From Candidatus Gottesmanbacteria bacterium (GTDB lineage Bacteria; Patescibacteriota; Microgenomatia; 2-02-FULL-39-11), in the NCBI GenBank assembly GCA_016186795.1, contig JACPKY010000002.1, forward strand, positions 26,593 to 90,592: a DNA stretch of 64,000 nucleotides. The letters are read 5' to 3'. Positions 16,701 through 49,706 of this stretch are shown here, piece by piece (the first letter of the stretch is position 1; every line of letters begins with the position of its first letter). Under the pieces are notes generated by a model. The model worked only from the letters and a program-made list of their open reading frames with translations. It made no database searches and had not been told where the DNA came from. The position numbers and the translations under genes were made by a program.

Positions 16701-16967
16701 ATGCCACAACGCGTTCCAGATCCAAAACTGGTAGAGAAGGTAGAACGCCTTCTTCGTCACTTTCCGGGCCCACCGATGATACATTCCAAAGTGGAATTTC
16801 ATGTTCCCAAAGATGACGCCGAATTATCTGTAGCGCTTGACACGATCAGGCAAAGATACGGTCTCGATTGGGGACATAATCGTGTGTGGTTTGAAACATC
16901 GCTGTTTGATGCGAACTTCCGGAAACAACCTGACACAGGTCAGTCATATATCGTGTGGAAAAAGTAA
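16701..16967 (+). CDS. hypothetical protein (88 aa)
   Basis: Strong RBS gaggagggtaataatcATG. Confidence 0.45.
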   Translation: MPQRVPDPKLVEKVERLLRHFPGPPMIHSKVEFHVPKDDAELSVALDTIRQRYGLDWGHNRVWFETSLFDANFRKQPDTGQSYIVWKK

Positions 16968-17011
16968 GGAGAAAAAACCAAAAAAAATCTAATACAATCC
17001 GCAGATCAGGT

Positions 17012-17065
17012 TTGTGCACATGGCACAGGTAGACTCGCGTTTCCGCGATTATCTTTGAGTCTACC
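17012..17065. repeat. 17-bp perfect inverted repeat (atggcacaggtagactc / gagtctacctgtgccat) with 20-nt loop, followed by a T-rich run
   Basis: Read directly. Sits just 3' of the gene at 16701-16967. Confidence 0.6.
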
Positions 17066-17364
17066 TGTGCCATTATTATTATTGATTCTGGGCGGGTTTT
17101 GGTTTTTTGCTTGCCCGTCGTCCGGGCCCGTTTTTACCAAACCAAGCTCCACATGTATACGACTCCTCTTTAATATTGTCATTCTGATCCTGAGCGAAGT
17201 CGAAGGAGAAGAATCCCCTCTATACTATAGGATTGACTTTTTAACTGTCCCCACGTATACTTTCACACTATTACGCAAGGATTTCCGTCAAAAGTTTAAT
17301 TGCAAACTTTACAACGGAAATTTTATTGCGGATTGCACATTAATAATCCTTGAGAACAAACCCT

Positions 17365-17420
17365 TCGAATTGGGAACAGTGGAAGTACAAAAAACTTATT
17401 TCCAGCGTTCCCAATTCGAA
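17365..17420. repeat. 14-bp perfect inverted repeat (ttcgaattgggaac / gttcccaattcgaa)
   Basis: Read directly. Lies 20 nt upstream of the RBS of the 17441 gene. Confidence 0.55.
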
Positions 17421-17440
17421 ATAGGGGAGGGGAAAATATC

Positions 17441-17821
17441 ATGTCAAAAGGAGATACGAACATGTCAGCAACAAGAACAACAGGTGGCGCCGAGAGGAAT
17501 CGAGCTTTTGCTCGTCTAAAAGCCGCCGCGCGCGTCATGAGCTTAGGCATGAATCATATGCCGATTCCCTGCGACGATTGTGAGTTCCGTCGCTGGAAAC
17601 GCATGTTTCCGAGGATTGCCTACGCATCTCTTGACGAAGTGAGAAATGATTTGGTCCTTGTAGACGGGACACGGCGAGGGTTGCGTGATGGATTTAGGAC
17701 TTATGAAATCAAAAGTCCTCGTACGTCGCCGGCTAAGGGAATCACTCTCCACTCATGTCTGTCGCGTTTTATTTTTGGCAGACAACGGAATCAGCGACGG
17801 TTTTTGGCGCCACGGAGGTGA
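17441..17821 (+). CDS. hypothetical basic protein (126 aa), GC-elevated
   Basis: RBS aggggagggg upstream. A Cys pair, CDDCEF. Confidence 0.35.
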   Translation: MSKGDTNMSATRTTGGAERNRAFARLKAAARVMSLGMNHMPIPCDDCEFRRWKRMFPRIAYASLDEVRNDLVLVDGTRRGLRDGFRTYEIKSPRTSPAKGITLHSCLSRFIFGRQRNQRRFLAPRR

Positions 17822-20444: not shown

Positions 20445-22151
20445 TTATTTGTTTTCCCTCTCAATAATTTTTTTCAATATTGCAAGACTAATAGCGTACG
20501 TTGGTTCCACTCCTTCATAGGATAAATTCCGGACTCCCAAATTTTTTGCTTTCGAGTAGGGTGTATCGGATGCATAGTGGGCAATGCCAATCTCAAACGG
20601 TGCATTGGTGAGACTGATAAAATCATTTTCAGCGTACCGATTGTAGAACACAAATTCATACAAAGCGTTGAAGTACGGCCCTGTTTCCATCTCGATGATC
20701 GTATACCCTTCCTGGTACCATTTCTTCACAAGATCCCCATTTTCCAAAAATGTCCCCTTGGCAGCAATTGTTTTTTGATCAGAAAGTACTGCGCCGGTTT
20801 TAAAAATTGTTTCAAAATCAGACGCACGGAGAGAATTATCAAAAACGTACAAATTCTTCGTATGCTGGTCAAAGACAGTTGTTGGAAGCAAGATATCTCC
20901 GATTTGCCCATTTAACGTTGCCGCTTTCCCCATGATGTAGACCCCTTTTATTCGTGCCACATTTTGTCCGATTTCAGTCAGTATTTGGTACGCTGCCCAG
21001 CCTAAGGGATAGTCGATATTCACAATTACCGCATCACTTTTTCCCAAGTTTTTCGTGTCAAGTTTCAATCTGGGATCAAGGGAAAGTCCTGCCAGTTTTT
21101 TTACTTCTATCACCTGGGTATCGATATCAAGATAGTGCGAAGAGGGAATGACATGAATTCCAAGTTTAGTCATAAGATGAGTTCTCCTCTTTTCGTATTC
21201 CGGGTGGGTTTTCCCGTATTTTTTGGCAATGTAGTAGAGGAAATTTTCCCGGTTTGCCAAGAAATCTCCCGAGTTTATCTCTCTCCAAAGCCGGAGCAAA
21301 GTCTGGTCGTGGGTTTTATAAAGATACTCAATCAAAAGTTTCTCATCGGCAAGAACATGTCTCAAAAGAAGGTTGACAAGGGAATGAGTATTACTGGAAA
21401 CAAAATAAAGTGGACGACTGAGGAAATTTAGATATTTAAGTTGATTTTCTATATGGTCCCACCACCGTTGTGTTGCCTTGGCGTATTCAACATACGATCC
21501 GGAAAGAAGTTGGACGGTAAACGAAACTTCCCTATACTTTATTGCCTGGAGGAATTTTGGGTACTCCTTCCCCCAAATTTTTTGCATTTTGGAGATATCA
21601 TCCTGGGATAAATGCTTTTTGGCTTCACTTTCGGTATCTTTGGCGTGACGAAGTTTCTCGTGGAATTTATTCCATTCGATCTGAAACGATGTCAGAAGTG
21701 TAATAAGATCGTCAACGTCGGTGACTGAGGCGATATAGACATAGAGTATCTCTTTCCCGTCAAAGTACATTTTCCGCCGCCGTCCGGGAGCCTCAACTTC
21801 TTTCAATTGGGAAAATTTAATAACGTTATGCTTTTTAAATACATCAAGGGATTGTCCGAGGATCACTTTTTTGACATTGGACATAACCTGCGGCAACCTT
21901 AAGAGTCCATAAATGAATGCGGAAGTATCGATAGTATCGGTACCTCCTTTTTCATGAAGGAGCGGTTTTGCCGCAATATGGGCATCAATCAGTTGGGCAA
22001 TATTGACTGTTCCAGACGATTTGAGAAGGGAGCGATATGTCCTTATGTAAATTTCTATCTCTGTTGTATTGAATGTTGTTTTTCCTTGGTGCATTGTCTG
22101 GTGTATTATATTCCATCTTTCCCTTGAATTACAGTGAAACGGACGGTACAA
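20445..22151 (-). CDS. nucleoside phosphorylase (PNP/UDP-1) family protein, AMP-nucleosidase-like, with long N-terminal extension
   Basis: C-terminal ...YTIIEMETGPYFNALYE... resembles the PNP_UDP_1 I/VEMEtAA motif. The roughly 300-aa N-terminal region has no recognised motif. Confidence 0.4.
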   Translation of the reverse strand: MYRPFHCNSRERWNIIHQTMHQGKTTFNTTEIEIYIRTYRSLLKSSGTVNIAQLIDAHIAAKPLLHEKGGTDTIDTSAFIYGLLRLPQVMSNVKKVILGQSLDVFKKHNVIKFSQLKEVEAPGRRRKMYFDGKEILYVYIASVTDVDDLITLLTSFQIEWNKFHEKLRHAKDTESEAKKHLSQDDISKMQKIWGKEYPKFLQAIKYREVSFTVQLLSGSYVEYAKATQRWWDHIENQLKYLNFLSRPLYFVSSNTHSLVNLLLRHVLADEKLLIEYLYKTHDQTLLRLWREINSGDFLANRENFLYYIAKKYGKTHPEYEKRRTHLMTKLGIHVIPSSHYLDIDTQVIEVKKLAGLSLDPRLKLDTKNLGKSDAVIVNIDYPLGWAAYQILTEIGQNVARIKGVYIMGKAATLNGQIGDILLPTTVFDQHTKNLYVFDNSLRASDFETIFKTGAVLSDQKTIAAKGTFLENGDLVKKWYQEGYTIIEMETGPYFNALYEFVFYNRYAENDFISLTNAPFEIGIAHYASDTPYSKAKNLGVRNLSYEGVEPTYAISLAILKKIIERENK

Positions 22152-23608: not shown

Positions 23609-24292
23609 GTGAAACGAATTTTACATCCACTTATAGTGAGGAGCATAGCGACGAATCTATTTATGGAAAAAAGAAAAATTCTTATCATCAAAATCGGCAG
23701 TTCTACCTTACTTACTCACAGGCTTTGTGTCGATGAGTATCGTATGAACCACATTGCTAAGCAAATAAAAATGATCCAAGATAGGGGATGGTCGGTTCTT
23801 CTTATTCTTTCTGGTGCTGTTGCCGTTGGCTCTCGATATATTGATATACCAACTGTTCGCAGTATTGGGAAAATGGCTGCAGCAGGTATTGGACAGGTGG
23901 AAATTCTTACAACTACAAAGTGTATTTTCCAATCGTTTGGCATGCGTATCGCTCAAGTACTTCTTACGAAGGACAATACTAATACAGAGAGGAAAAAGGA
24001 TATGTTGAAAACAGTAATTTCTCTTTATATTCAGAAAAAAATAATCCCGGTATTCAATGAGAATGACGTTTTAGATCTCTATAGTTTTGGAGGGAACGAC
24101 TACCTCGCCCAGTTTCTTGCAAAACTAGTTGGTGTTTCACGGGTTAGTATTCTTTCTTCATTGAAGACAAATGGATTTGGAGTTGGGGGTGGAGTATCAA
24201 AGCGGGAAATAGTTTCTGATCTTCAAAAAATGGCCATACCAACATTTCTTCTTAACGGGAAAAAGAAGGATTGCCTTCTGGAGGTTGTATGA
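23609..24292 (+). CDS. proB: glutamate 5-kinase (short form, no PUA domain)
   Basis: IIKIGSS, SGAVAVG, AAAGIGQ, AQVLLTKDN, IIPVFNENDV and FGGNDYLAQFLA match ProB signature blocks. Followed by proA. Confidence 0.8.
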   Translation: MKRILHPLIVRSIATNLFMEKRKILIIKIGSSTLLTHRLCVDEYRMNHIAKQIKMIQDRGWSVLLILSGAVAVGSRYIDIPTVRSIGKMAAAGIGQVEILTTTKCIFQSFGMRIAQVLLTKDNTNTERKKDMLKTVISLYIQKKIIPVFNENDVLDLYSFGGNDYLAQFLAKLVGVSRVSILSSLKTNGFGVGGGVSKREIVSDLQKMAIPTFLLNGKKKDCLLEVV

Positions 24293-25530
24293 ATATACAC
24301 AACTTACAAAAGATGTGTCAGGCACAGCAAATTCTCAGTACTGAAGGTAAGAGGAGAAAAGATTTATTTTGCGAAAGTTTAGCACGAAATATTTCGAAAA
24401 AGAAAGCATCCATAATATCTGCAAATGTTCGCGATTGGAAGAAAGCTATGAAGAAAAAATATGATTCGGCATTTTTAGATAGACTTCGACTTGATGAAGA
24501 AAAGGTTGATGCAATAGTCCAAAGGATATATACCGTAAAGGGACTAAATGCAGGCATTGGCAGTTGCATAGAAAGAGTGCTACTCCCAAACGGTGTTACC
24601 CTAAAAAGGATTCGCGTGCCTCTTGGAGTCCTTTTATTTATTTATGAGTCCAGACCGGAAGTGACCATAGATGTTGTAACTCTTGCGATCGGTTCTGGGA
24701 ATGCATGTATTTTAAAAGCGGGGAGTGAATCATGGTACACATCAACACTTCTTATAGACTTTGTGAAAAGAGCACTTTTCACGGCAGGCTTACCCCAGGA
24801 GGCAGTGTATTTTATAAAGTCAAAGAGTCGAAGGTCTCTCTATACCCTCCTTACGAAGACGAACTTCATTGACGTTGTCATTGCCCGTGGCGGATATGCT
24901 ATGGTACAAAATATACTCAAAAGATCTCGGATTCCTGTTTTGTGTCACAGCGAGGGAGGGGCACGGATTTATATTGATAGGACAGGAAATCTAGAAATGG
25001 CCAAAAAAATAGTACTCAATGCAAAAACAAGTAACCCCTCAGCATGTAATAGTTTGGATACAATTCTTGTTCATGAGGAAATTTCCCAAAAATTCCTTCC
25101 AGAGTTAGTACACCTTCTCATTGGCAACAATATCACGATTTACGGAGATAAAACTGCCCAAAAAATTTCAAAAGAAATTCTTCCAGCAACCCCAAAAACG
25201 TGGGAGGAGGAATTTTTATCTCTGGCCGTTTCTATAAAAGTAGTCAGAGGCGTTTCAGAGGCGTTACAGTTTATCTCCCGGTATACCAATCATCATAGTG
25301 AGGGAATTATTGCGAAGGATAAAAAAGTCATCGACATATTCACTAAATCAATTGATGCTGCAGCCCTTTTTATCAATTGTTCACCGAGGCTCCATGACGG
25401 CTTCGTTTTTGGAAAAGGAGCAGAGGTTGGTATTGCTACAGGAAAGCTCCATGCACGCGGTCCATTGGGACTGACAGATCTCACAACCTATAAATGGGTA
25501 GCTTACGGGAATGGGCAAATACGGGAGTAA
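24289..25530 (+). CDS. proA: gamma-glutamyl phosphate reductase
   Basis: Aldehyde-dehydrogenase-like sequence. CNSLDTILVHEEI and HSEGII match ProA blocks. Start overlaps proB (ATGA). Confidence 0.85.
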   Translation: MNIHNLQKMCQAQQILSTEGKRRKDLFCESLARNISKKKASIISANVRDWKKAMKKKYDSAFLDRLRLDEEKVDAIVQRIYTVKGLNAGIGSCIERVLLPNGVTLKRIRVPLGVLLFIYESRPEVTIDVVTLAIGSGNACILKAGSESWYTSTLLIDFVKRALFTAGLPQEAVYFIKSKSRRSLYTLLTKTNFIDVVIARGGYAMVQNILKRSRIPVLCHSEGGARIYIDRTGNLEMAKKIVLNAKTSNPSACNSLDTILVHEEISQKFLPELVHLLIGNNITIYGDKTAQKISKEILPATPKTWEEEFLSLAVSIKVVRGVSEALQFISRYTNHHSEGIIAKDKKVIDIFTKSIDAAALFINCSPRLHDGFVFGKGAEVGIATGKLHARGPLGLTDLTTYKWVAYGNGQIRE

Positions 25531-25536
25531 TCGAAT

Positions 25537-26364
25537 ATGAAAAAAAAGATAGGTATCATCGGGTGCGGACATATAGGGGCAGCGATCCTTACTGGATTTT
25601 TGTCGGCAAAAACTATTTCGCCGGAAGAAATTATTGTCTCCAATCCTGATATTGAGGACCTCAAGAAAAAGTTTCCGAAAGTTTTATTTACAACTCAAAA
25701 TAAAGAAGCAACAGAGGCGGAAATATGTATTTTGGCAGTAAGACCAAATATTGTTCAAGAAGTCTTGCGAGAAACTCGTCCAACATTTTTATCCAAGATA
25801 CTTCTTATTTCTACTGCCGCTTGTGTAACAATGGATCTTTTGCAATCGTACTTAGGCAAAAGTATCAAAATAATTCGTATCATGCCTAATTTAGGAGTAG
25901 CCTATGGACAGGGGATTATCGGATTTTTGGCAAATAAAAAAGTGACGAAAAAAGATAAAATATATTTCCGAAACGTTTTTTCCAAACTAGGACTGCTTGT
26001 TGAGTGCAACGACGATGAGACAATCGATAAACTTAGTATGATCTCCGGCTCCGGTCCCGGATATGCTGCATATTATATGGAAAATCTTGCAAAACAAGCT
26101 CAAATTTATGGTTTTTCACGTGATGTTTCACGGAAAATGGTCTTACAAACGTTTGCTGGGACTATACGAAGGCTGCAAAAAGAAAATCTTTCTTTTTCAG
26201 AGCTTTTAACTGGTGTTAGTACAAAAGGAGGAATTACAGAAGAGGTAATAAAAACATGGGATGAAAAGAAACTCCCACAAATTCTTTCTCAGGGAATTTC
26301 TCGAGGGTATGCTAAAATAAAACGAATAACTAATTCCTATTTCTTTGCTTCTCCAAAGAAATAG
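25537..26364 (+). CDS. proC: pyrroline-5-carboxylate reductase
   Basis: N-terminal Rossmann IGIIGCGHIGAAI. ProC-like C-terminal dimerisation domain. Operon context with proBA. Confidence 0.85.
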   Translation: MKKKIGIIGCGHIGAAILTGFLSAKTISPEEIIVSNPDIEDLKKKFPKVLFTTQNKEATEAEICILAVRPNIVQEVLRETRPTFLSKILLISTAACVTMDLLQSYLGKSIKIIRIMPNLGVAYGQGIIGFLANKKVTKKDKIYFRNVFSKLGLLVECNDDETIDKLSMISGSGPGYAAYYMENLAKQAQIYGFSRDVSRKMVLQTFAGTIRRLQKENLSFSELLTGVSTKGGITEEVIKTWDEKKLPQILSQGISRGYAKIKRITNSYFFASPKK

Positions 26365-26387
26365 TAGAAAGAAAACATTCAGAGGCA

Positions 26388-26732
26388 GTGAAAAATATGA
26401 GTACAATAGATGATTTTTTAAAACTCGATATCCGGGTTGGGAAAATTCTTACCGTTGAGGATTTTCCCGAGGCTCGGAAACCTTCGTACAAACTCATGAT
26501 CGATTTTGGTCCGGAAATCGGAACAAAAAAATCCAGCGCGCAACTGGTACAGTATTACAAGAAAGCTGATCTTGTCGGGAAACACATTTTGGGCGTTGTC
26601 AATTTTCCGCCACGCCAAATTGGTCCCTTTGTTTCCGAAGTTCTGACTCTTGGAGTTCCAGATGAAAATCATGAATGTGTGTTAGTTGTTCCCGATAAAG
26701 ACGAAGCAGTAATTGGAGGAAAGTTGTTTTGA
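26388..26732 (+). CDS. csaA: tRNA-binding protein CsaA/Trbp111 (EMAP/OB-fold domain)
   Basis: FLKLDIRVGKIL...DFPEARKPSYKLMIDFG is the conserved tRNA-binding OB-fold sequence. Confidence 0.8.
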   Translation: MKNMSTIDDFLKLDIRVGKILTVEDFPEARKPSYKLMIDFGPEIGTKKSSAQLVQYYKKADLVGKHILGVVNFPPRQIGPFVSEVLTLGVPDENHECVLVVPDKDEAVIGGKLF

Positions 26733-26750
26733 TTTTTTTCCTTTCTTTGA

Positions 26751-28202
26751 GTGGCCAAAGAAAGGAAAACCACTATGTTTGAAAAAAAAGAAATTGCAAA
26801 AAAATCCGTTAATCCTGACAGATGGTATACAGATGTAATATTGAAATCCGAACTTGCTGATTATTCACCTGTCCGCGGCTGCATGATAATTCGTCCCTAT
26901 GGTTATGAAATTTGGGAGAACATCCAAAACTATCTTGATAAAAAATTCAAGGAACTAGGAGTAAAAAATGCCTACTTTCCTACATTTATCCCCATGAGTT
27001 TTTTGCAAAGAGAGAAAGAGCATGTGGAAGGATTTTCCCCGCAGTTGGCAGTAGTTACTCATGGCGGAGGGGAGAAGCTCAGTGAACCGCTTGCTGTGCG
27101 GCCAACGTCTGAAACGATCATGTACGATACCTATGCTCGTTGGATCCAAAGTTGGCGCGATCTACCTCTTCTTCTAAACCTTTGGAATAACGTTGTGAGG
27201 TGGGAGAAAAGGACATATTTATTTCTTCGCACTGCCGAATTTTTGTGGCAAGAAGGACATACCGCACACGCGACATTTGATGATGCAGATACTTTTGCTA
27301 GAAAAATTCTTGAGATCTATACGGTTTTTGATGAAGATGTATTGGCGACTCCTGTTTTGGTAGGCAAAAAGAGTGAAAACGAGAAATTCCCTGGTGCCGC
27401 CATTACCTATTCGTTGGAAGCCCTCATGCCAGATGGTAAAGCTATCCAGATGGGTACATCACACCATTTAGGGGACAATTTTGCCAAAGCATTCAAGATA
27501 AAGTATCTGGATAAGAATGGGAGAGAGCAGTTTGTGTGGCAGACAAGTTGGGCAGAAACAACTCGGGTGATTGGGGCAATTATCATGGCCCATGGTGATG
27601 ATCAGGGTCTTATTCTGCCTCCAAATATTGCCCCAATCCAGGCAGTTTTTGTGCCTATAAAACTAAATGAAAAGGTACTTAACTATTGTCAAAAAATTTC
27701 TCAAGAGTTAGTAAAATCCGGTATTCGGGTACATATTGACAGTAGAGAAGAAAAATCAGTGGGATGGAAATTTCATGAATGGGAATTGAAAGGAATACCA
27801 ATTCGAATCGAAATAGGGGAGAAAGAGATGGAAAATGATGAATTGACTTTGGTGAGAAGAGATACTGGCGAAAAAGTCAAAAGTCAAAAGTCAAAAGTCA
27901 AAAGTGATACTGAGAGATTACTAAAAGAAATTCAAGATAATCTTTTTGAGAGAATGAAAAAATTTAGAGATGAAAATACTCATACTGTATCTTCCTATGA
28001 AGAATTTAAAAAAATTATGGCGACCCAAAAAGGGTATATTTATGCTTTCTGGTGTGAAGATCCAGTTTGCGAGGCAAAAATAAAAGAAGAAACCAAAGCA
28101 ACCACCCGGATTTTGCCATTAGATGCAAAAGAAGAAAAAGGAGAATGCGTTTACTGCAAAAAACCAGCTACTCACCGCTGGTATTTTGCCCAGGCATACT
28201 AA
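26751..28202 (+). CDS. proS: prolyl-tRNA synthetase (archaeal/eukaryote-like class II form)
   Basis: WYTDVILKSELADYSPVRGCMIIRPYGYEIWE. Class II motifs. C-terminal Zn-binding CxxC...CxxC. Confidence 0.9.
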   Translation: MAKERKTTMFEKKEIAKKSVNPDRWYTDVILKSELADYSPVRGCMIIRPYGYEIWENIQNYLDKKFKELGVKNAYFPTFIPMSFLQREKEHVEGFSPQLAVVTHGGGEKLSEPLAVRPTSETIMYDTYARWIQSWRDLPLLLNLWNNVVRWEKRTYLFLRTAEFLWQEGHTAHATFDDADTFARKILEIYTVFDEDVLATPVLVGKKSENEKFPGAAITYSLEALMPDGKAIQMGTSHHLGDNFAKAFKIKYLDKNGREQFVWQTSWAETTRVIGAIIMAHGDDQGLILPPNIAPIQAVFVPIKLNEKVLNYCQKISQELVKSGIRVHIDSREEKSVGWKFHEWELKGIPIRIEIGEKEMENDELTLVRRDTGEKVKSQKSKVKSDTERLLKEIQDNLFERMKKFRDENTHTVSSYEEFKKIMATQKGYIYAFWCEDPVCEAKIKEETKATTRILPLDAKEEKGECVYCKKPATHRWYFAQAY

Positions 28203-33194: not shown

Positions 33195-33300
33195 CCAAAT
33201 CCCAACCCCAATCAACACCAATGTCCAAATCCCAAAATACAAAACGTTTTGATTATTGGTAATTGGTAGTATTGGATATTGAAATTGGTCATTGGATATT
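33195..33300. repeat. low-complexity imperfect palindrome (ccaaatccca-type repeats mirrored by ttggatattgg-type repeats around aaaacgtttt)
   Basis: Read directly. Not CRISPR-like, as there are no regular spacers. Confidence 0.6.
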
Positions 33301-33320
33301 GGTTATTATTGATTAATCAC

Positions 33321-34259
33321 ATGATTCTCGTCACCGGATCCCTCGCCTTTGACCATATCATGAATTTTCCAGGCAGGTTTGGCGATCATATCCTCCCTGA
33401 GAAGCTTCATATACTCAACGTCTCTTTTCTTGTTCCTGAAATGCGCAAAAGTTTTGGGGGAACTTCCGGAAATATTTCCTACACGTTGGCGCTTTTTGGA
33501 GTAGACGTAGCAATATTGGGAGTTGTGGGGTCAGATTTTGCGCCGTACAAAAAATTTCTTGAGGAAAACGGCGTAAAAACAACATATATTTTTGAATCGC
33601 ACGGACATTTTACCTCAACAGCTTTTGGCATTACAGATAGAGAAAACAACAATATCTGGGGATTTTATACCGGAGCAGATGACGTCTCTGACTCACTTTC
33701 CCTGGGTCAAGTGAAGGAATCAATCGAATTCGGTATTGTTGCTCCTCAAAAGCCAGAAACGATGCTTTCTATGATTCGACAGTATAAACGGAAGGCTATT
33801 CCTTATATATTTGATCCAGGGATGCAACTGCCGTGGTTTACGAAAGATCACTTGATTGAAGCATTCGAACACGCAAGTGTTGTAATTGGCAATGACTATG
33901 AAATGAGTGTGATCGAGAAAAAAATAGGGATTGAGATGCTTTCGGATTTTTGTAAAAAAGGAAAAATTATTATCACAACGTTGGGTGGGAAAGGATCACG
34001 GATAGAGAAAAAAGGTAAGGTGTTCGATATTCCTCCCGTCCGTGTTGAATCCAGAGATCCAGCGGGTGCCGGAGATGCGTACCGAGCAGGATTTATTGCC
34101 GGTTTTCTCAAAGGAATGTCTTTAGATGTATGCGGTCGGATGGGATCGGTTGCTGCAGCATATACTGTGGAGAAATTTGGGACAACGACGCATATGTTTA
34201 CCAAGAAGGAATTTGAAAGAAGATATAAGGAAGCGTATAAAGAAAATTTATCTATTTAG
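33321..34259 (+). CDS. PfkB-family carbohydrate/nucleoside kinase (ribokinase/adenosine kinase-like)
   Basis: N-terminal ILVTGSLAFDHI. PfkB signature 2 DPAGAGDAYRAGFIAG. Confidence 0.8.
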   Translation: MILVTGSLAFDHIMNFPGRFGDHILPEKLHILNVSFLVPEMRKSFGGTSGNISYTLALFGVDVAILGVVGSDFAPYKKFLEENGVKTTYIFESHGHFTSTAFGITDRENNNIWGFYTGADDVSDSLSLGQVKESIEFGIVAPQKPETMLSMIRQYKRKAIPYIFDPGMQLPWFTKDHLIEAFEHASVVIGNDYEMSVIEKKIGIEMLSDFCKKGKIIITTLGGKGSRIEKKGKVFDIPPVRVESRDPAGAGDAYRAGFIAGFLKGMSLDVCGRMGSVAAAYTVEKFGTTTHMFTKKEFERRYKEAYKENLSI

Positions 34260-34288: not shown

Positions 34289-35014
34289 TTGGATTTTGAG
34301 CTTTGGATTGTCATGTATAACAAACCCTTACTCTTATTCGACATCGACTGGACTCTTCTTAAGGGTGGTCTTGCCGAGCATGTCGATGGATTTACCTATG
34401 CATGGAATAAAGTTTTAGGGATCACTGCTCATTTGTCTGATTGGAAAGATTACCACGGACAGCCGGATGGAGTGATTCTTTCGAAAATTCCCGTTCTCTG
34501 CCATGGGGTAGACCAAGAAACTGTAAAGCTGAAACAAGAAGCGTTGAAACAGGCGAAAATAGATTATTTTTTTGAACACGCACAAAAAGATTATAAACAT
34601 CTTCTCATGCCGGGAGTCATTGATTTATTGCACGAGCTTGAAAAACGGACAATTCCCATGGTAATCGCATCAGGAAATCTTGAAAAAATTGGCTGGTATA
34701 GGTTGGAAAAGGCGGGAATCAAAAAATTTTTTCTGGGAGGAGGATGGGGAGATAGCGTTTCTTCAAAATCTGAGGCATTTTTGCTTGCTATCGCAGCCTC
34801 CGAAAAGATTCTTTTGCAAAAAATTCCCAAAGAACACATTTTTGATATTGGTGATTCACACTACGATATTGAAGCAGCAAGAGCAATCGGGATTCACTCT
34901 ATCGGTGTTTTGACGGGATTTGATTCGGAAGATGTATTGCGAAAAAGTGGCGCAGAATACGTATTAAAAAATCTTACTGATACAAAGAAATTTTTCGAAA
35001 TGATCAAAATATAA
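34289..35014 (+). CDS. HAD-superfamily hydrolase
   Basis: Motif I LLFDIDWTL. Motif IV GDSHYDIEAARAIG. Confidence 0.75.
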   Translation: MDFELWIVMYNKPLLLFDIDWTLLKGGLAEHVDGFTYAWNKVLGITAHLSDWKDYHGQPDGVILSKIPVLCHGVDQETVKLKQEALKQAKIDYFFEHAQKDYKHLLMPGVIDLLHELEKRTIPMVIASGNLEKIGWYRLEKAGIKKFFLGGGWGDSVSSKSEAFLLAIAASEKILLQKIPKEHIFDIGDSHYDIEAARAIGIHSIGVLTGFDSEDVLRKSGAEYVLKNLTDTKKFFEMIKI

Positions 35015-35051: not shown

Positions 35052-35939
35052 ATGAGTCTTTCTATGAGTAATCACAAGCTAAAAAGTTGGGTATACCGTT
35101 CACCTGATAGAATTTCTCCGCACACGCTGCATATTGAGGTAATCGCAGATTACGGAGGGGGCCATAGTACTGATCACGCCTTTGCAGAAGTGCGAAATCA
35201 TTTCTTGCGTTTTGATAAGGGCAAAAAAATCCGCTTAGTTACCGAGCATCCGGTATTTGCTTTTTCCACTCTTGAGACAGGATTTTGGATTTCACAGGAA
35301 GGCCTTCACAGCGAGCATAAGGATCTGGTCATTTTTTCCAATACCGCTCCTCGCGGAGATGTTGTGTGGCGCGGACATGAAACACAAGGGTTTGTCTGTG
35401 GGATTTTGGATAACGGAATTCCTATCTTTGCTGTGAATGCTGGGTATAACCTTTCATTTGTAAAGGACCGCCTGAAGGGTTTATGGGAAGTGAAAGTTCC
35501 AAATGTCGGAACTCAGTTTCGATCTCGCGATTACTATCCCGAAGTGACGATGGCAATCCTTCAGGGTAATTCTACAAAAGTCGGCAAAGAGGTTAATCTT
35601 AGAGAAATTCCCGCCGTCCCTAACTTCGTTGTCGCCTCTGTTGACGGCTATGGAAATCTGAAAACAACAATTCGTCGAAGCTATCTTTCTGACAGGGTAC
35701 TTTCTAGTAAGAAAGTAAAAGTGACAATTAATAATGCTTCCCATATCGTATTAAATACGTTGGCAGGGGGACATGGGAAAGTTGGAGAGTTGTGTATGGT
35801 GCAGGGGTCATCAGGTGGGAAAAATAGAACATATATAGAATTTATCAGAATGCAAGGACGAGCTGCCGATGATTTTCACATTGATGGTCCACGGGATGAT
35901 ATGGGGAAAATTGTGATAGAAACAATAAGGGAAGGATAA
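35052..35939 (+). CDS. DUF62 family SAM hydroxide adenosyltransferase (SAM hydrolase, fluorinase/chlorinase-like fold)
   Basis: N-terminal IEVIADYGG corresponds to the DUF62 TDFG block. C-terminal VDGYGNLKTTI corresponds to the IDxFGNLITNI block. About 295 aa. Confidence 0.6.
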   Translation: MSLSMSNHKLKSWVYRSPDRISPHTLHIEVIADYGGGHSTDHAFAEVRNHFLRFDKGKKIRLVTEHPVFAFSTLETGFWISQEGLHSEHKDLVIFSNTAPRGDVVWRGHETQGFVCGILDNGIPIFAVNAGYNLSFVKDRLKGLWEVKVPNVGTQFRSRDYYPEVTMAILQGNSTKVGKEVNLREIPAVPNFVVASVDGYGNLKTTIRRSYLSDRVLSSKKVKVTINNASHIVLNTLAGGHGKVGELCMVQGSSGGKNRTYIEFIRMQGRAADDFHIDGPRDDMGKIVIETIREG

Positions 35940-35945
35940 CCGGAT

Positions 35946-38090
35946 ATGTACTACAAATCAATTCTTGACCTTATTGGCAATACTCCGCTTGTCCGCATCA
36001 ATAAACTCAATCCAAATCCCTCAAACGTTACAATTCTTGTCAAACTTGAGTACTTAAACCCCGGCGGAAGTATCAAAGATCGGATGGTGAAAGAGATTGT
36101 TGCGGAGGCAGAAAAGAATGGAGAGCTTAAAAAAGGGGGAACAATTGTTGAGGCCACATCCGGCAATACCGGAATCGGATTTGCCATGGTTTCCGCAGTT
36201 AAAGGATATAAAGCAATCTTTACCCAGCCCAACTGGATGAGTGCCAACAAGAGGAAGCTCATTGAAGCTTTTGGGGCAAAGGTTCATGTTTGTCCTACAG
36301 CAGTTCCAATTGATGATCCGCGAAGTTACAAAAGTACCGCCAAAAGAATTGCCAAAGAAAAAGGAGCTTATCTTTCAGATCAGTACAGTAACCCAGCAAA
36401 CCCTGTTGCTCACTACAAAACAACCGGCCGGGAAATTTGGGAAGCACTAAACGGGAAAATTGATTATATAGTAATTGGAATAGGGACAGGTGGCACCTCA
36501 ACGGGGGTAGTCAAGTTTCTTAAAGAAAAAAATCCCAAAATAAAATTTATTGCACCAGACCCCATAGGTTCTGTTTATAGCGGCAAGCTTGGTGCCTTCA
36601 GAGTAGAGGGAATTGGTCATATTTTTATTCCCAAAAATGTTGATTTATCCCTTGTTGATGAGTTTGTTCGTCTGGAAAGTAAGAAAGCTATTGAAATGGC
36701 AAAGCGGATAACTTGTAAGGAGGGGATTTTGGCAGGACCATCATCGGGGGCAGCTATGTATGCGGCAGTTGAAGTTGCCAAAAAAATAAAAGAAAAGGGG
36801 AAAGTAATCGTTGCTATTTTTCCTGATTCAGGGGAACGGTACCTGGATTATCTTTACGACGAAGATTTTGAAGTACCAGTTGTATCCAAACATCGAACGA
36901 AGGAGAATTTCTCAACTTCCGCAATCCATGGGCCAGTTTCTGATTTTCAAGACAGGAATGCTCTGGTTCCTCCGCTGTATCGATCCGCAATTTACAAATT
37001 CAAAAATGTTGAAGAAGCGGGGAAAATTTTTGAAGGCAGTAATCGTGCGGAAGAAAACAGATCCAAATACGTCTATACTCGCGGCAATCATCCAAATCAG
37101 CGTCTTTTGGAAAGGACCCTTACGAGACTTGAAGGTGGGGTGGATAGTGTTGCCTTTTCCTCAGGGATGGCGGCAATTACTTCTTTTGCCGAGACAATTC
37201 TTCATCAAGGTGATGAAGTGGTTGCCTCCAATGTTTTATATGGAGATACGCATAAATTTTTCAATAGTTTTGTCAAAAGGTGGGGGATAAAAACGACGTT
37301 TGTTGATATCACCAATCTTTCTCAGGTACAAAAAGCAATAAGTAAAAAAACCAAACTTATCTATACAGAAACCCCCACCAATCCGCTTTTAACAATTGCC
37401 GATATTGAAAAACTTTCTCAAATTGCCAAACAAGCAAATGCTATTTTGGTTATCGATAATACATTTGCATCCCCTTATTTACAACAACCGTTAAAATTGG
37501 GAGCCGATGTCGTTATCGAATCGACGACAAAATATATATCAGGACACTCCGATGCCTTGGGAGGTATTGTTATTGCCAAAAACCAAGATCTTATTATGGA
37601 ACTTTGGGGAACTCTTTTTGTCAAAGGCGCTCAGATGGATCCCGAAGTTGCAGCTCTATCGCTTCGGGGACTAAAAACGCTTGGTCTTAGGATGGAAAGA
37701 CATTGCCAAAACGCGCAAATTGTTGCAAAATTTTTATCCAAACACCCGAAGGTGAAAGTTGTGTACTATCCAGGACTTATTACACATCCCCAGCATGATC
37801 TTGCAAGAGTTCAGATGAACGGATTTGGAGGGATTGTTTCCTTTGAGCTAAAAGGTGGGATTGAGGAAGGTAAAAAATTTGTGAACAACCTGAAACTTTT
37901 CTCTCTTTCAGTAAGTTTGGGAGCTATAGAAAGTTTAGTAAACCATCCTGCGTCTATGACACAAAAAGTTATTCCGCAAAAGGAACGGCTCAAGGCAGGA
38001 ATTACCGATGGACTTATCAGGCTCTCAGTTGGAATTGAAGACGTTGATGATCTTTTGGCAGATTTGAGAGAGTCTTTTAATACGTTATAA
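35946..38090 (+). CDS. fusion protein: N-terminal cysteine synthase/cystathionine beta-synthase (PLP fold II) plus C-terminal cystathionine gamma-synthase/lyase (Cys/Met-metabolism PLP fold I)
   Basis: N-terminal LNPGGSIKDRM and TSGNTGIG are CysK/CBS motifs. C-terminal YTRGNHPN and TTKYISGHSDALGG are the Cys_Met_Meta_PP PLP-lysine region. Single 714-codon ORF. Confidence 0.8.
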   Translation: MYYKSILDLIGNTPLVRINKLNPNPSNVTILVKLEYLNPGGSIKDRMVKEIVAEAEKNGELKKGGTIVEATSGNTGIGFAMVSAVKGYKAIFTQPNWMSANKRKLIEAFGAKVHVCPTAVPIDDPRSYKSTAKRIAKEKGAYLSDQYSNPANPVAHYKTTGREIWEALNGKIDYIVIGIGTGGTSTGVVKFLKEKNPKIKFIAPDPIGSVYSGKLGAFRVEGIGHIFIPKNVDLSLVDEFVRLESKKAIEMAKRITCKEGILAGPSSGAAMYAAVEVAKKIKEKGKVIVAIFPDSGERYLDYLYDEDFEVPVVSKHRTKENFSTSAIHGPVSDFQDRNALVPPLYRSAIYKFKNVEEAGKIFEGSNRAEENRSKYVYTRGNHPNQRLLERTLTRLEGGVDSVAFSSGMAAITSFAETILHQGDEVVASNVLYGDTHKFFNSFVKRWGIKTTFVDITNLSQVQKAISKKTKLIYTETPTNPLLTIADIEKLSQIAKQANAILVIDNTFASPYLQQPLKLGADVVIESTTKYISGHSDALGGIVIAKNQDLIMELWGTLFVKGAQMDPEVAALSLRGLKTLGLRMERHCQNAQIVAKFLSKHPKVKVVYYPGLITHPQHDLARVQMNGFGGIVSFELKGGIEEGKKFVNNLKLFSLSVSLGAIESLVNHPASMTQKVIPQKERLKAGITDGLIRLSVGIEDVDDLLADLRESFNTL

Positions 38091-38110
38091 CTATTTGAAA
38101 GAAGAAGGAA

Positions 38111-39367
38111 ATGAAACAATATAAAGTAAAAGATATTAAATTGGCAGATAGCGGGAAGAAGAAAATTGATTGGGCTCGTGATCATATGCCGGTTGTTTCA
38201 GAAATTACTAAAGAGTTTTCAAAAAGAAAACCCTTTAAGGGGTTAACAATAGGAGCTAGTCTTCATGTAACGAAAGATACGGCTGTTTTGATGTACGCTT
38301 TAAGGACGGGAGGAGCCAAAGTTATCTTGTGTGGATGTAATCCGCTCTCAACTCAAGACGATGTTGCGGCAGCTTTAGCCAAAGACGACTTTCCGATTTT
38401 TGCCTGGAGGGGGCAAACAAGATTTGAGTACTATACGTCTATTGATTTTGTCTTGGATCACAAACCACAGATCACAATTGATGATGGTTGTGACTTGGTG
38501 GGTGTTGTCCATTCGAGAAGGAAAAATCTGATCCCCAATATATTGGGAGGATGTGAAGAAACTGCAATGGGAGTAAATAGGTTAAGAGTGATGGAGAAGG
38601 AAGGAGTTTTGAAATACCCTATGATTGCAGTTAACGATGCATACACCAAGCATCTTTTTGACAATCGATATGGTACTGGACAGTCAAGCCTTGACGGAAT
38701 CTTACGAGCAACCAATATCCTTTTTTCCGGAAAAACTATGGTTGTCGTCGGATACGGATGGTGTGGAAGAGGAGTAACAACGAGAGCCAAAGGATTGGGA
38801 TCCCAAGTGATTGTTTGTGAAATTGATCCGATTCGGGCTCTTGAGGCAGTGATGGATGGTTTTGGAGTGATGCCGATATCTGCGGCGGTCCGCATTGGTG
38901 ATATTTTTGTCACAGTTACCAGCAATAAAAATGTCATTACGTATGCTCATATGCTGACAATGAAAGACGGGGCGGTACTTGCAAATGCCGGTCATACCAA
39001 TGTAGAAATTGATGTGGAAACTCTTGATAAAAGAGTGAAAAAAAGAGTTGAAATTCGTCCTAATACTGTCGAATACTTTCTGCCGAACGGAAAAACGATA
39101 TACGTCTTGGGAGAAGGAAGAATTATTAATCTTGTTGCAGCTGAAGGGCATCCGTCAGAAGTTATGGATATGAGTTTTGCAACACAAGCATTATCTGCAG
39201 AATATATAGCGGTTCACCATAAAAAGCTTTTACCCAAAGTTTACAATACCACTATTGAGCAGGATCGGCGAATTGCGACGTTGAAACTTAAAACAATGGG
39301 AATTTCAATTGATACAATGACCGCTGCACAAAAGAAATACATGGGAAGCTGGACCGAAGGTACTTGA
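38111..39367 (+). CDS. ahcY: adenosylhomocysteinase
   Basis: GCNPLSTQDDVAAAL. NAD-binding VVGYGWCGRG. SAHH signatures. Confidence 0.9.
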   Translation: MKQYKVKDIKLADSGKKKIDWARDHMPVVSEITKEFSKRKPFKGLTIGASLHVTKDTAVLMYALRTGGAKVILCGCNPLSTQDDVAAALAKDDFPIFAWRGQTRFEYYTSIDFVLDHKPQITIDDGCDLVGVVHSRRKNLIPNILGGCEETAMGVNRLRVMEKEGVLKYPMIAVNDAYTKHLFDNRYGTGQSSLDGILRATNILFSGKTMVVVGYGWCGRGVTTRAKGLGSQVIVCEIDPIRALEAVMDGFGVMPISAAVRIGDIFVTVTSNKNVITYAHMLTMKDGAVLANAGHTNVEIDVETLDKRVKKRVEIRPNTVEYFLPNGKTIYVLGEGRIINLVAAEGHPSEVMDMSFATQALSAEYIAVHHKKLLPKVYNTTIEQDRRIATLKLKTMGISIDTMTAAQKKYMGSWTEGT

Positions 39368-41933: not shown

Positions 41934-43361
41934 TTGATATTGAATATGTTGCGTCTATATAATACTCTCACGCGAAAAATCGAGAATTTTGTTCCGTTAA
42001 ATCCACCGCTTGTCACCTACTATTCCTGTGGTCCGACGGTGTATGATTTTGCCCATATCGGGCATGCACGGACGTATGTCTTTTCTGATATTTTGCAACG
42101 AGTGTTGGAGTGGAGTGGATACAAAGTAAAACGGGTGATGAATATTACTGATGTTGGTCATTTAACATCCGATAGCGATACCGGGGAGGACAAGATGGAA
42201 AAGGGAGCGAAAAGGGAAGGAAAAACCGTTTGGGATATCGCAAAATTCTACACCGATGATTTTTTCGTGATGCTGCAAAAATTGAATATCAAAACGCCCC
42301 AAACGATTTGCAAGGCGACCGACTACATCAAAGAAATGATTGATTTGGTGAAAGTTTTGGAAAAAAAAGGTTTTACCTACACCATAGAAGATGGAGTATA
42401 TTTCGATACCGGAAAAATATCCGACTACGGAAAACTTACGGGAAAGTCAAAAGAAGAGTTGGAAAAAGGACAAAAAGCAGGTTTCAGGGTGGAAATCGTT
42501 CCCGGAAAACGAAATCCTATGGATTTTGCCCTATGGAAATTAACTCCCAAAGGAGTAAAGCGGCAAATGGAATGGGATAGTCCCTGGGGGAAAGGATTTC
42601 CTGGTTGGCATATTGAATGCTCAGCCATGAGTATGAAAGTATTAGGGCCTACTATTGATATTCATACAGGTGGTGTTGACCATATCCCTATTCACCACAC
42701 CAATGAAATTGCCCAAAGCGAAGCGGCAACCGACAAAAAGTTTGTCCGTTTTTTTCTTCATGGAGAGCATCTTTTCGTTGATGGGGAAAAGATGAGCAAA
42801 TCGAGAGGTAATTTTTACCGAGTTGCCGATATCGAAAAGAAAGAATACTCACCTTTGGCTCTTCGGTATCTTTTTTTGACTGTACACTATCGTACGCAGA
42901 TGAACTTTACCTGGAAGTCACTTAACGCCTCCCAAACTGCTCTTACTAACCTTTACGATCATATACGAAAGCATATCCAAAATGGTGCAAAAGAAGGGAA
43001 ATTATCAAAAGAAGCGCAAAAAGTAAAAAAAGAATTTGAAGAAGCGATTTCCTCTGATCTTTCTTTACCTCTTGCCTTGGCAGTCGTTTGGGATACGGTG
43101 AAAGGAAGACTTTCCTCTTCTGATATTTACACGTTGCTTCTCCAATTTGATACTGTGCTGGGTTTGGGTTTTTCCGATATTCACGTTTCTATTGCACCAG
43201 ATATACAAGCGCTTATTTTAAAGCGAGATGAAGCTCGGCGCAATAAAAATTTTCAGGAGGCGGATAAACTTCGAAGTATGCTTGAAAAAAAAAGGTTTGC
43301 AGTCAATGATACGTCGGTTGGAACTATCGTTATCCCCAGAAATAATAACGCTAAAAGATAA
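41934..43361 (+). CDS. cysS: cysteinyl-tRNA synthetase
   Basis: HIGH motif HIGHARTYV. KMSKS motif. Confidence 0.9.
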   Translation: MILNMLRLYNTLTRKIENFVPLNPPLVTYYSCGPTVYDFAHIGHARTYVFSDILQRVLEWSGYKVKRVMNITDVGHLTSDSDTGEDKMEKGAKREGKTVWDIAKFYTDDFFVMLQKLNIKTPQTICKATDYIKEMIDLVKVLEKKGFTYTIEDGVYFDTGKISDYGKLTGKSKEELEKGQKAGFRVEIVPGKRNPMDFALWKLTPKGVKRQMEWDSPWGKGFPGWHIECSAMSMKVLGPTIDIHTGGVDHIPIHHTNEIAQSEAATDKKFVRFFLHGEHLFVDGEKMSKSRGNFYRVADIEKKEYSPLALRYLFLTVHYRTQMNFTWKSLNASQTALTNLYDHIRKHIQNGAKEGKLSKEAQKVKKEFEEAISSDLSLPLALAVVWDTVKGRLSSSDIYTLLLQFDTVLGLGFSDIHVSIAPDIQALILKRDEARRNKNFQEADKLRSMLEKKRFAVNDTSVGTIVIPRNNNAKR

Positions 43362-48797: not shown

Positions 48798-49706
48798 TCA
48801 AGAGTGCAGTTTGTGAAGCGGGTGGTAGTTGAGTCTTCCTTCTGCGATGAATATCCCCCCGAAAATAAAAATACTTCCGACGATAAAGACAGGAGTAATT
48901 GTTTCCCCAAGAAGTGGATAGGCAAGAGTTGCAGCAACAACTGGATCAATATAGGCAAAAATGCCAATTTCTTGGCCCGGGATTTTTCGAATTCCCCAGT
49001 CGTAAAGAGTGTACGCAATCGTTGATGAGAGGAAAATCCCAAAAATGATTCCAAGTATTCCACGATAGTCAAGAGGGGGTATCGGGCGAAATGCCACCTG
49101 TTCAAAAAGAAAGAGGGGAAAGAAGCTATACGCCCCAATAAGAAATGACCAGAAAGTGAGAGTTTTTGCACTGTACCTATTGAGAATTGGTTTGCCGATA
49201 ATTGTATGACCAACTATTCCCAACGCTGCGATCAAGAAAAACAAATTTCCAATACTTTCTAAAGCAAAACCCTGTTCAAATAGGGGTTGGATGAGGAAAA
49301 GAAGCACCCCACACATACTAACCAGAAGTCCCAAAAAAGTTTTGAGGTGGAACTTTTCCTTCAAAAAAAGTAGTGAAAGTAAGTACAAAAAAGCAGGTGA
49401 GGAGGATGCAATGATTGGCATATTGATTGAAGGAGCAAGTTTGAGACCGAGGAAAAAAAATGAGATGTTTATAGTTATACCAAAGAGGGAGAAGAAGAAA
49501 AGCGCTGTCCAATCTTTTCTTGAAATTGTAAGATTTGGCAGCACAAATGGTAACAGGAGAAATGAAGCTCCAAGAAATCTTATAAAAGCCAATGTAAACG
49601 GGGGGATATTTTCCAGTGAAAGTTTAAAAATAGGAGAGGCCATCCCCCAGATGATATTTGCACTAATCAGGGCAACTATGGCTTTTCTATGTGAGGTTGA
49701 GAGCAT
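48798..49706 (-). CDS. EamA/DMT-superfamily transporter
   Basis: Ten hydrophobic helices. Duplicated EamA-like halves. Confidence 0.75.
   Translation of the reverse strand: MLSTSHRKAIVALISANIIWGMASPIFKLSLENIPPFTLAFIRFLGASFLLLPFVLPNLTISRKDWTALFFFSLFGITINISFFFLGLKLAPSINMPIIASSSPAFLYLLSLLFLKEKFHLKTFLGLLVSMCGVLLFLIQPLFEQGFALESIGNLFFLIAALGIVGHTIIGKPILNRYSAKTLTFWSFLIGAYSFFPLFLFEQVAFRPIPPLDYRGILGIIFGIFLSSTIAYTLYDWGIRKIPGQEIGIFAYIDPVVAATLAYPLLGETITPVFIVGSIFIFGGIFIAEGRLNYHPLHKLHS

Follow-up and report, generated by a model that had tools for sequence, protein, structure and literature searches.

Reverse transsulfuration and the hydrolysis of S-adenosylhomocysteine (SAH) are textbook chemistry, and a pathway that combines them is not new. 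The closest described arrangement is the mccAB operon of Bacillus subtilis with mtnN, matched by Cytobacillus loci (L009, L038, L044 and L075), in which two genes encode, in this order, a cystathionine β-synthase (CBS)-type and a γ-lyase-type enzyme that depend on pyridoxal 5'-phosphate (PLP) and presumably convert homocysteine and serine (or O-acetylserine) to cysteine, 2-oxobutyrate and ammonia, in association with MtnN or LuxS as the SAH-degrading enzyme. Here we describe a locus with the same two enzyme families, in the same order and with the same presumed net reaction, in a 64,000-nt stretch of Candidatus Gottesmanbacteria, a lineage of the Candidate Phyla Radiation (CPR) (GenBank assembly GCA_016186795.1, contig JACPKY010000002.1, positions 26,593 to 90,592 of the forward strand; the whole stretch is called the window, and coordinates count from its first nucleotide). 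It differs from the mccAB-type pairs in that both enzymes form one polypeptide, that the lyase carries an acidic residue at the position of Cys116 of methionine γ-lyase (MGL; hence 'acidic-116') whereas theirs has the canonical YGG...Glu signature, and that the SAH-degrading enzyme is the adenosylhomocysteinase AhcY. On balance we think it probable that this locus is an SAH-disposal and reverse-transsulfuration module of these bacteria; what is new or unstudied in it is the fusion, its lyase clade and a DUF62-fold protein, encoded directly upstream, that lacks the usual catalytic triad.

The fusion is encoded by an open reading frame (ORF) of 714 aa that runs in one frame without a stop and in which Pfam detects both a fold-II PLP enzyme (PALP, residues 7-294, 249 bits, E = 1e-73) and a fold-I PLP enzyme (Cys_Met_Meta_PP, residues 324-711, 475 bits, E = 2e-142), in agreement with a first-pass annotation of the window that had read it as a single polypeptide of these two types. 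The motifs quoted there are all present (GGSIKDR at 40-46, SGNTG at 72-76 and TKYISGHSDALGG at 528-540), and alignment to solved CBS and MGL structures locates both PLP lysines, K44 (GGSIK44DR, nt 36075-36077) and K529 (TK529YISGH, nt 37530-37532). A 100 %-identical protein is held at NCBI on a 1.118-Mb contig under the name 'pyridoxal-phosphate dependent enzyme [Candidatus Gottesmanbacteria bacterium]', and about 30 more full-length fusion clusters (713-727 aa, 66-74 % identity) come from NCBI, JGI, ENA and Logan assemblies. In 31 aligned full-length clusters the column of the first PLP lysine does not vary, and the second lysine, read as a motif, is kept in all full-length clusters but one. 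The linker, 'LYDEDFEVP..KHETKKGF', is likewise conserved among the fusions, with F308, E309, P311, T318 and K319 conserved in the alignment. The first-pass annotation had raised the worry that a frameshift conceals two genes, and a sequencing indel that merged adjacent genes is indeed suggested for one database 'fusion' (P0036, 851 aa, PALP, CBS pair and lyase), which lies on a long-read contig beside a split thiolase gene and which we set aside as a probable indel artefact. For the protein in the window such an origin has a negligible chance: more than 30 independent assemblies show the same single ORF, whose conserved linker leaves no room for a stop and restart, and the identical protein stands on a contig of more than a megabase. 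In practice this excludes a frameshift or an error of assembly, and the fusion is to be taken as real.

The gene that follows the fusion encodes AhcY, an identification from the first-pass annotation that holds by the curated NCBIfam equivalog cut-offs (TIGR00936, 601.9 against 497.6; NF004005, 627.7 against 275) and by matches to both AdoHcyase domains (PF05221 and PF00670). AhcY lies directly 3' of the fusion in all eight fusion loci examined (the window, L001, L002, L003, L083, L084, L085 and the archaeal L081), at distances of -4 to 121 nt that are mostly below 40 nt, so that the proposed linkage of the two genes extends beyond the window. The archaeal homologue (P0034) is a 699-aa fusion with 52 % identity whose junction is the same but for a deletion of 7 aa and which carries Glu at position 116; its 120-kb contig is archaeal by genes for RNase P Rpp14/p30, L15e, L21e and Rpb4, its stop overlaps the start of AhcY, and all its other neighbours are unrelated. 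Because this pair is retained amid unrelated neighbours, fusion and AhcY are likely to be functionally coupled beyond inherited synteny, and the arrangement points to a two-gene module that has been exchanged between domains. The core conserved across lineages is the fusion with AhcY; the three-gene cluster first proposed stands in this part, whereas the link of the DUF62-like gene to CBS holds only within Gottesmanbacteria.

Two of these loci hold a further AhcY gene. At L001 (Gottesmanbacteria RBG_16_37_8) residues 1-179 and 195-418 of the AhcY query match the downstream copy as two pieces in different frames (10148-11402), which probably reflects a pseudogene or a frameshift in sequencing; 5' of the DUF62-like gene the locus has an AhcY that is intact. 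On the fusion-bearing Gottesmanbacteria contig L084 (633-4817 and 8462-9685) AhcY is present twice; a glutamate-cysteine ligase of the GCS2 family (PF04107) is encoded 5' of the DUF62-like gene, and the AhcY downstream of the fusion is followed by an Aminotran_1_2 gene, a context that hints that the cysteine made there feeds a γ-glutamylcysteine-type thiol.

The genes of the locus and the parts of the fusion are as follows.
33279-34259, plus strand: PfkB-family kinase (Pfam PfkB, 132 bits), a candidate adenosine/nucleoside kinase
34289-35014, plus strand: HAD-family phosphatase (Pfam HAD_2/HAD), a doubtful member of the functional unit
35052-35939, plus strand: divergent DUF62-fold protein, 295 aa (likely start 35064, 291 aa)
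35946-38090, plus strand: fusion ORF, PALP and Cys_Met_Meta_PP, 714 aa
35946-36845, plus strand: fusion N-half, CBS-type fold-II PLP core, aa 1-300, no Bateman module (K44 at 36075-36077)
36846-36905, plus strand: fusion linker DYLYDEDFEVPVVSKHRTKE, aa 301-320, short and conserved
36906-38090, plus strand: fusion C-half, fold-I γ-lyase of the predicted acidic-116 clade, aa 321-714
38111-39367, plus strand: AhcY, adenosylhomocysteinase, 418 aa
39399-40307, plus strand: Prs, ribose-phosphate diphosphokinase (TIGR01251, 311 bits against a cut-off of 113)
41934-43361, plus strand: CysS, 2.6 kb downstream

The N-half carries the hallmark motifs of a CBS core, namely the GGS(I/V)KDR lysine, the TSGNTG asparagine loop and the GTGGT phosphate loop, in common with the CBS enzymes of Mycobacterium tuberculosis (Rv1077) and Coxiella burnetii (PDB 7xnz and 4ofx). 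K44, S72-G76 and G180-T184 align with these two proteins and are invariant in 34 fusion sequences. The two enzymes are also the best PDB matches at 278 bits, with cysteine synthases reaching 259 bits. Of the NCBIfam models the CBS model TIGR01137 scores best, at 364.5 bits, a small margin over cysK/cysKM (322-325 bits); it is matched in its catalytic core (positions 3-313 of 457), and its curated cut-off of 510 is set for the whole protein with the Bateman module. Rv1077 and the stand-alone Gottesmanbacteria CBS proteins bear a C-terminal Bateman regulatory module, whereas the fusion, which gives no PF00571 match, has its catalytic lyase domain at this place. The nearest natural relatives of the N-half are these stand-alone CBS plus Bateman proteins of Gottesmanbacteria (about 450 aa, 53-57 % identity), one of which, at L067, occupies the syntenic position of the fusion; the simplest history is that the lyase domain took the place of the Bateman module in a resident CBS of Gottesmanbacteria type. 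No γ-lyase is present in the L067 locus beside its unfused CBS plus Bateman gene. Right after the CBS/AhcY genes, on the opposite strand, L067 (9339-11327, minus strand) and L002 (11531-13327, minus strand) encode a protein of 598-662 aa whose C-terminal part looks, by eye and with no domain scan, like a class I/II aminotransferase, and which might supply C-S lyase activity in L067; it has no counterpart in the window, where Prs is the next gene after AhcY.

The C-half had been labelled a cystathionine γ-synthase (CGS), so that of the first-pass reading 'CBS/CGS' the CBS core is borne out and the second label is wrong: its best matches are γ-lyases (MGL 381 bits, cystathionine γ-lyase (CGL) 334 bits), and it has the signature of neither. 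The general fold-I catalytic set is intact (Y377, R379, Y432, K529 and R692, the equivalents of Tyr59, Arg61, Tyr114, Lys211 and Arg375), and with these residues retained the domain looks catalytically competent. Among characterised families MGL (Pseudomonas putida, Citrobacter freundii and Fusobacterium nucleatum) scores highest, at about 45-50 % identity, and shares with the C-half the general catalytic residues and a Val at position 339. Methioninases are recognised by YGC (Cys116 in P. putida numbering) together with Lys240-Asp241 (PMC11568061). In the C-half, Cys116 is replaced by Asp434 (L431-Y-G-D434; nt 37245-37247) and Lys240-Asp241 by Leu557-Phe558, and its score against the MGL model TIGR01328 is below the curated cut-off (434.4 against 549.7 bits), as is that against the MccB-type model NF005810 (381 against 594 bits); on the YGC and KD residues we rejected its assignment as a methioninase.

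Position 116 is Asp or Glu, by motif reading, in all but two of the approximately 30 fusion orthologue clusters. By comparison, YGG is found in the CBS-adjacent lyases of 68 of the 72 loci read for it (every locus outside the three fusion loci of the survey described below, except one), and 12 representative clusters of canonical CGLs read G...QN...E. Searched exhaustively with HMMER, 1.84 billion representatives yielded a single 50 %-identity cluster for the fusion, with nearest neighbours outside it only 44-49 % identical, and the two closest of these, P0243 and P0245 (a Pyrinomonadaceae protein), have the signature Asp/Glu...Leu-Phe...Val, as in the fusion. A neighbour-joining tree groups the acidic-116 proteins with the fusion C-halves, apart from the C-KD-V methioninases and the G-QN-E CGLs; being without bootstrap it is indicative only, and it does not settle the placement of archaeal relative to CPR fusions. 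By these sequence signatures the C-half belongs to a small, uncharacterised γ-lyase clade with Asp or Glu at the position of Cys116. A role in specificity is ascribed to Glu333 of yeast CGL (Hopwood et al. 2014, as cited in PMC11039470), and the acidic residue in the distal pocket of the C-half may take a similar part to Glu339 (human) or Glu333 (yeast) by binding the distal amino group of cystathionine, which would make the domain specific for this substrate. Another protein with an acidic-116 lyase, P0037 (559 aa, on a 2.8-kb Logan contig), has the motif IYGDS and is 63 % identical to the C-half, with a cytidine/deoxycytidylate-deaminase-like domain (PF00383/PF14437) at the N-terminus in place of CBS; it is either a second fusion partner of the lyase clade or a chimeric contig.

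When one genome per species was scanned (185,579 species), 80 loci were returned and their ORFs checked, and the fusion was found as a single ORF in three of them, two from Gottesmanbacteria and one from a metagenome-assembled genome labelled 'Patescibacteria group'. In about 65 of the 80, genes for CBS (with or without a Bateman module) and CGL are adjacent and unfused, and such pairs occur in Bdellovibrionota, Melainabacteria, Bacteroidota, Ignavibacteria, Planctomycetota, Cytobacillus, Methanosarcinales, Heimdallarchaeota and other groups. The gene pair is thus common and the fusion rare, as the first-pass annotation had supposed in calling it uncommon. The idea that the fusion is this widespread pair joined together was rejected in part, as the adjacent CGLs are of YGG type, only 38-50 % identical, and belong to a different clade. 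Two isolated PALP/Cys_Met_Meta_PP fusions (P0038 and P0042) have the same domain order with a YGG-type lyase. A fusion in reverse order, Cys_Met_Meta_PP then PALP (P0041, L086:4001-6193, 730 aa, 22 member sequences), is set in a ThiS/ThiF/Prok-JAB/TusA sulfur-carrier cluster, a biosynthetic context, and is probably a fused sulfur-carrier-protein-dependent homocysteine/cysteine synthase, functionally unlike the fusion in the window. In the literature searched, whose coverage was incomplete and from which absence does not follow, we found no description of a natural CBS-lyase fusion or of transsulfuration in CPR bacteria.

The gene directly upstream of the fusion had been annotated as a DUF62 hydrolase of S-adenosylmethionine (SAM). 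The NCBI model of the identical protein begins at 35064, four codons later (291 aa, the numbering used below), under the name 'SAM-dependent chlorinase/fluorinase'. Family models detect it barely or not at all (Pfam SAM_HAT_C, 24.3 bits, under the cut-off of 25.5; no SAM_HAT_N and no NCBIfam match; nothing in the PDB by phmmer). A profile of 31 family members matches MJ1651 (E = 2e-4) and aligns by hhalign with canonical DUF62/SalL at a probability of 85 % (E = 7e-6, 227 columns). The AlphaFold2 (AF2) model has a predicted local distance difference test score (pLDDT) of 84.7, and its top 29 Foldseek matches in the PDB are all chlorinases, fluorinases or DUF62 proteins (E = 5e-14 to 4e-10, TM-score 0.55-0.75), so that the predicted two-domain fluorinase/DUF62 fold is secure. 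The protein shares this fold with the DUF62 hydrolases PH0463, MJ1651 and StDUF62 and the halogenases FlA and SalL at about 15-18 % identity, together with the N-terminal ribose-binding Asp (ADYG versus TDFG; D29, nt 35148-35150) and the motifs DNG, F-x-x-R-D and D-x-(F/Y)-G-N, the last of which it reads as D-G-Y-G-N; the SAM-contacting motifs are thus kept.

SAM hydroxide adenosyltransferases have a strictly conserved water-activating Asp-Arg-His triad that is absent from the halogenases (PMC10491745), and DUF62 enzymes are known to hydrolyse (R)-SAM, the inactive epimer, to adenosine and methionine (bioRxiv 10.1101/2025.08.29.672840). In the protein of the window, Asp68 of PH0463 corresponds to Ala95 (nt 35346-35348), Arg75 to Arg97 (35352-35354) and His127 to Arg153, the last within R153-S154-R155-D156 (35520-35531); hhalign and MAFFT agree on all three positions, HMMER confirms that of the His, and all three residues are invariant in the 31 family members. 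With two of the three triad residues replaced, a standard SAM hydrolase was rejected: the fold assigned by the first-pass annotation is borne out by AF2 and Foldseek, and its canonical activity is not. The DPGVG loop is 5 residues shorter than in the DUF62 hydrolases, and the Gly that follows the triad His there is Ser154 here. The halogenases likewise lack the triad, and relative to their halide pockets (FlA Thr80/Ser158; SalL Tyr70/Gly131) Ser154 aligns with the fluoride-binding Ser158 of FlA, the loop that bears FlA Thr80 is missing, and Asn93 stands at the position of SalL Tyr70. The protein may hydrolyse (R)-SAM with a different catalytic apparatus, or use another nucleophile. The retained SAM motifs, the lost triad Asp and His and the gained R153-S154 pair also lead us to a reaction type new to the fluorinase/chlorinase/SAM-hydrolase family, transfer of the 5'-deoxyadenosyl group to a non-hydroxide anionic nucleophile (which could be hydrosulfide, a thiol such as homocysteine, phosphate or halide) or reverse SAM synthesis; we consider this quite unlikely, and, if true, it would tie SAM cleavage chemically to the adjacent sulfur pathway. 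Approximately 2,000 database proteins match the family at E ≤ 0.001, and among the matches listed none of 120 homologues has a precomputed Pfam annotation. The gene is directly upstream of the CBS gene, fused or not, in the window, L001, L002, L084 and L067, all from Gottesmanbacteria, to which this linkage is confined, and it is not beside the fusions of L083, L085 and the archaeal L081.

From 33.3 to 43.4 kb all genes of the window are on the plus strand, and in the core from 33.3 to 41.2 kb the intergenic spacing is -1 to 37 nt (6 nt from the DUF62-like gene to the fusion, 20 nt from the fusion to AhcY). Promoter-like sites were no commoner in a promoter scan than in shuffled sequence, and a terminator scan found no terminator-like site within the gaps separating the genes; the gaps of 6-37 nt, in which no such site lies, suggest co-transcription. 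The 5' neighbours of the cluster are a YbaB-like gene, the PfkB kinase and the HAD phosphatase, and AhcY is followed in order by Prs, RecR, a SufT-like Fe-S assembly protein, a small ORF and CysS. The kinase best matches a nucleoside kinase of Burkholderia thailandensis in the PDB (3b1n/3b1r, 186-188 bits), scores 165 bits against M. tuberculosis adenosine kinase (2pkf) and is far under the cut-off of all NCBIfam equivalogs; L001, L002, L067 and L074 keep it in synteny with the cluster. Among related loci only L074 has the HAD phosphatase at the matching position, and it is thus not a conserved part. The Prs-RecR-SufT-CysS block is syntenic in L002, L067 and L084, and the link to Prs possibly runs via purine salvage or is one of synteny only. 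L074 itself (contig CAZKLT010000013.1), labelled 'uncultured Gammaproteobacteria', has PfkB, HAD, AhcY, DUF62-like, CBS and Prs genes of Gottesmanbacteria type, and the label is probably a binning or labelling error.

In the SAH-disposal and reverse-transsulfuration module that we propose, methyltransferases would convert SAM to SAH, AhcY would split SAH into adenosine and homocysteine, the CBS half would condense homocysteine with serine (or O-acetylserine) to cystathionine, and the γ-lyase half would cleave cystathionine to cysteine, 2-oxobutyrate and ammonia. The equilibrium of AhcY favours SAH synthesis, so that both of its products must be removed and their removal would pull hydrolysis forward. 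Adenosine would probably be converted to AMP by the PfkB kinase, whose resemblance to nucleoside and adenosine kinases makes the adenosine recycling suggested by the first-pass annotation plausible. The most likely reaction of the DUF62-like protein is likewise at C5' of SAM and would add methionine and an adenosine-type product to the same pool; its mechanism must differ from the canonical water activation by Asp-Arg-His. The roughly 65 loci with adjacent genes across many phyla mark CBS-CGL as an established functional unit, the same activities that the fusion would link, and CysS, 2.6 kb downstream, also counts in favour of a cysteine-forming pathway. Of the two directions first considered, that from homocysteine to cysteine fits best with AhcY adjacent. 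The term 'SAM salvage' used at first is overstated, as the fusion and AhcY would dispose of SAH and recover its sulfur as cysteine without regenerating methionine or SAM. What the analysis establishes is how the genes are built and placed, which domains and PLP lysines the proteins carry, their residue signatures and how they are distributed; the substrates, the direction, any channelling and the roles of D434, the PfkB kinase and the DUF62-like protein are what we infer.

Several observations weigh against this assignment. Neither half of the fusion reaches any NCBIfam equivalog cut-off, and the sequence of the N-half does not distinguish serine from O-acetylserine as co-substrate. In the C-half, Glu339 of human CGL (Glu333 in yeast) corresponds to Val656 (nt 37911-37913) and the CGL motif YGG to YGD, and PDB matches to MGL (F. 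nucleatum 381 bits, C. freundii 373 bits) outscore those to CGL (334 bits). The AF2 model of the whole fusion has a predicted TM-score (pTM) of 0.65, low confidence at residues 300-380 and no confident domain-domain packing, and so says nothing on a tunnel and gives no backing to the channelling within one protein that had been suggested. The higher scores against MGL would also accommodate a relay of sulfide, in which the C-half acts as a homocysteine (or methionine) γ-lyase that frees H2S (or methanethiol) with 2-oxobutyrate and ammonia, and the N-half uses the sulfide to form cysteine from serine or O-acetylserine, with the same net stoichiometry and no cystathionine; the fusion would then serve to hand a volatile, toxic compound from one active site to the other. 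CBS enzymes are established to catalyse serine sulfhydration and H2S-exchange reactions, the N-half is only slightly more CBS-like than cysteine synthase-like (278 versus 259 bits in the PDB; TIGR01137 364 versus cysK 322), and the Val in place of Glu339 is that of MGLs. Yet the MGL hallmarks are all replaced (YGC by YGD, KD by LF; PMC11568061), the conserved acidic residue of the distal pocket should suit the distal ammonium of cystathionine better than homocysteine or methionine, and the nearest relatives of the N-half are CBS plus Bateman proteins, not CysK, which makes the relay unlikely.

A forward route to methionine, with the N-half as cysteine synthase and the C-half as CGS or O-acylhomoserine sulfhydrylase that would lead from cysteine on to homocysteine, could appeal to the NCBIfam CGS/O-succinylhomoserine sulfhydrylase scores of 370-404 bits and to the biosynthetic ThiS/ThiF/JAB/TusA setting of the reverse-order P0041. 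It is very improbable, in that those scores are all below both their cut-offs and the lyase scores, AhcY, a producer of homocysteine, is always adjacent, no homoserine acyltransferase, cystathionine β-lyase or methionine synthase was found within the 64-kb window, and P0041 is an independent fusion of opposite domain order. A functional unit made up of the fusion and AhcY alone, with the DUF62-like protein, PfkB, HAD and Prs placed beside them by gene order, is compatible with the module that we propose and would only narrow it. The YbaB, Prs, RecR and CysS flanks are syntenic in Gottesmanbacteria along with the rest of the stretch from YbaB to CysS, so that PfkB and the DUF62-like gene may owe their place here to inherited order only; L083, L085 and the archaeal L081 have AhcY with no DUF62-like, PfkB or Prs gene nearby, and the HAD phosphatase recurs in just one other locus. 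On the other hand, the DUF62-like gene stays upstream of CBS where AhcY sits on the opposite side (L001 and L067) or where CBS is unfused (L067), and an adenosine kinase and a SAM-cleaving enzyme would suit one metabolite pool. We regard the narrower unit as possible, if somewhat unlikely, and keep the wider SAH-disposal and reverse-transsulfuration module as the preferred reading.

Elsewhere in the window, ProB-, ProA- and ProC-like genes (amino-acid kinase, aldehyde dehydrogenase and pyrroline-5-carboxylate reductase) lie directly before that of prolyl-tRNA synthetase (23609-28202), in parallel to the cysteine-forming module near CysS, and the pairing of an amino-acid route with its cognate tRNA synthetase may be a local pattern. 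With these genes present, the 64 kb do not bear out the first-pass suggestion that the organism lacks de novo pathways. MetK, MetE and MetH were not found within the 64 kb. An EamA/DMT-family transporter is encoded at 48798-49706 on the minus strand; the SAM transporter of Rickettsia is a member of this family, and the protein would be of interest were the organism to take up SAM or to move sulfur amino acids in or out. The minus strand also encodes, at 20445-22151, a 568-aa protein with a full-length DUF6909 match (606 bits). The block from 4096 to 17519 has large ORFs without a Pfam match (4096-5862, 5902-7785 and 11738-13117) and a TrwB/TraG-like type IV coupling protein (14042-16432); the G+C content is 0.48-0.51 at 10-14 kb compared to about 0.41 elsewhere, and the block may be an integrated mobile element or a secretion/attachment locus of CPR type.

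The fusion is a natural, lineage-conserved joining of a fold-II and a fold-I PLP enzyme for what would be consecutive steps, and it offers a test system for the channelling of cystathionine (or sulfide) and for the union of a dimer-forming and a tetramer-forming domain in one chain. Members of the acidic-116 clade are labelled 'methionine-gamma-lyase' or generic 'PLP-dependent enzyme' by annotation pipelines, which marks a gap in the prediction of specificity, and the approximately 2,000 triad-less DUF62-fold proteins are relevant to biocatalysis based on fluorinases and chlorinases. The lyase clade, the fusion architecture and, above all, the DUF62-like protein merit enzymology. The archaeal homologue of the fusion and AhcY points to gene exchange between domains, and for the biology of CPR bacteria the module suggests that homocysteine derived from methionine and SAM serves these reduced organisms as the route to cysteine.

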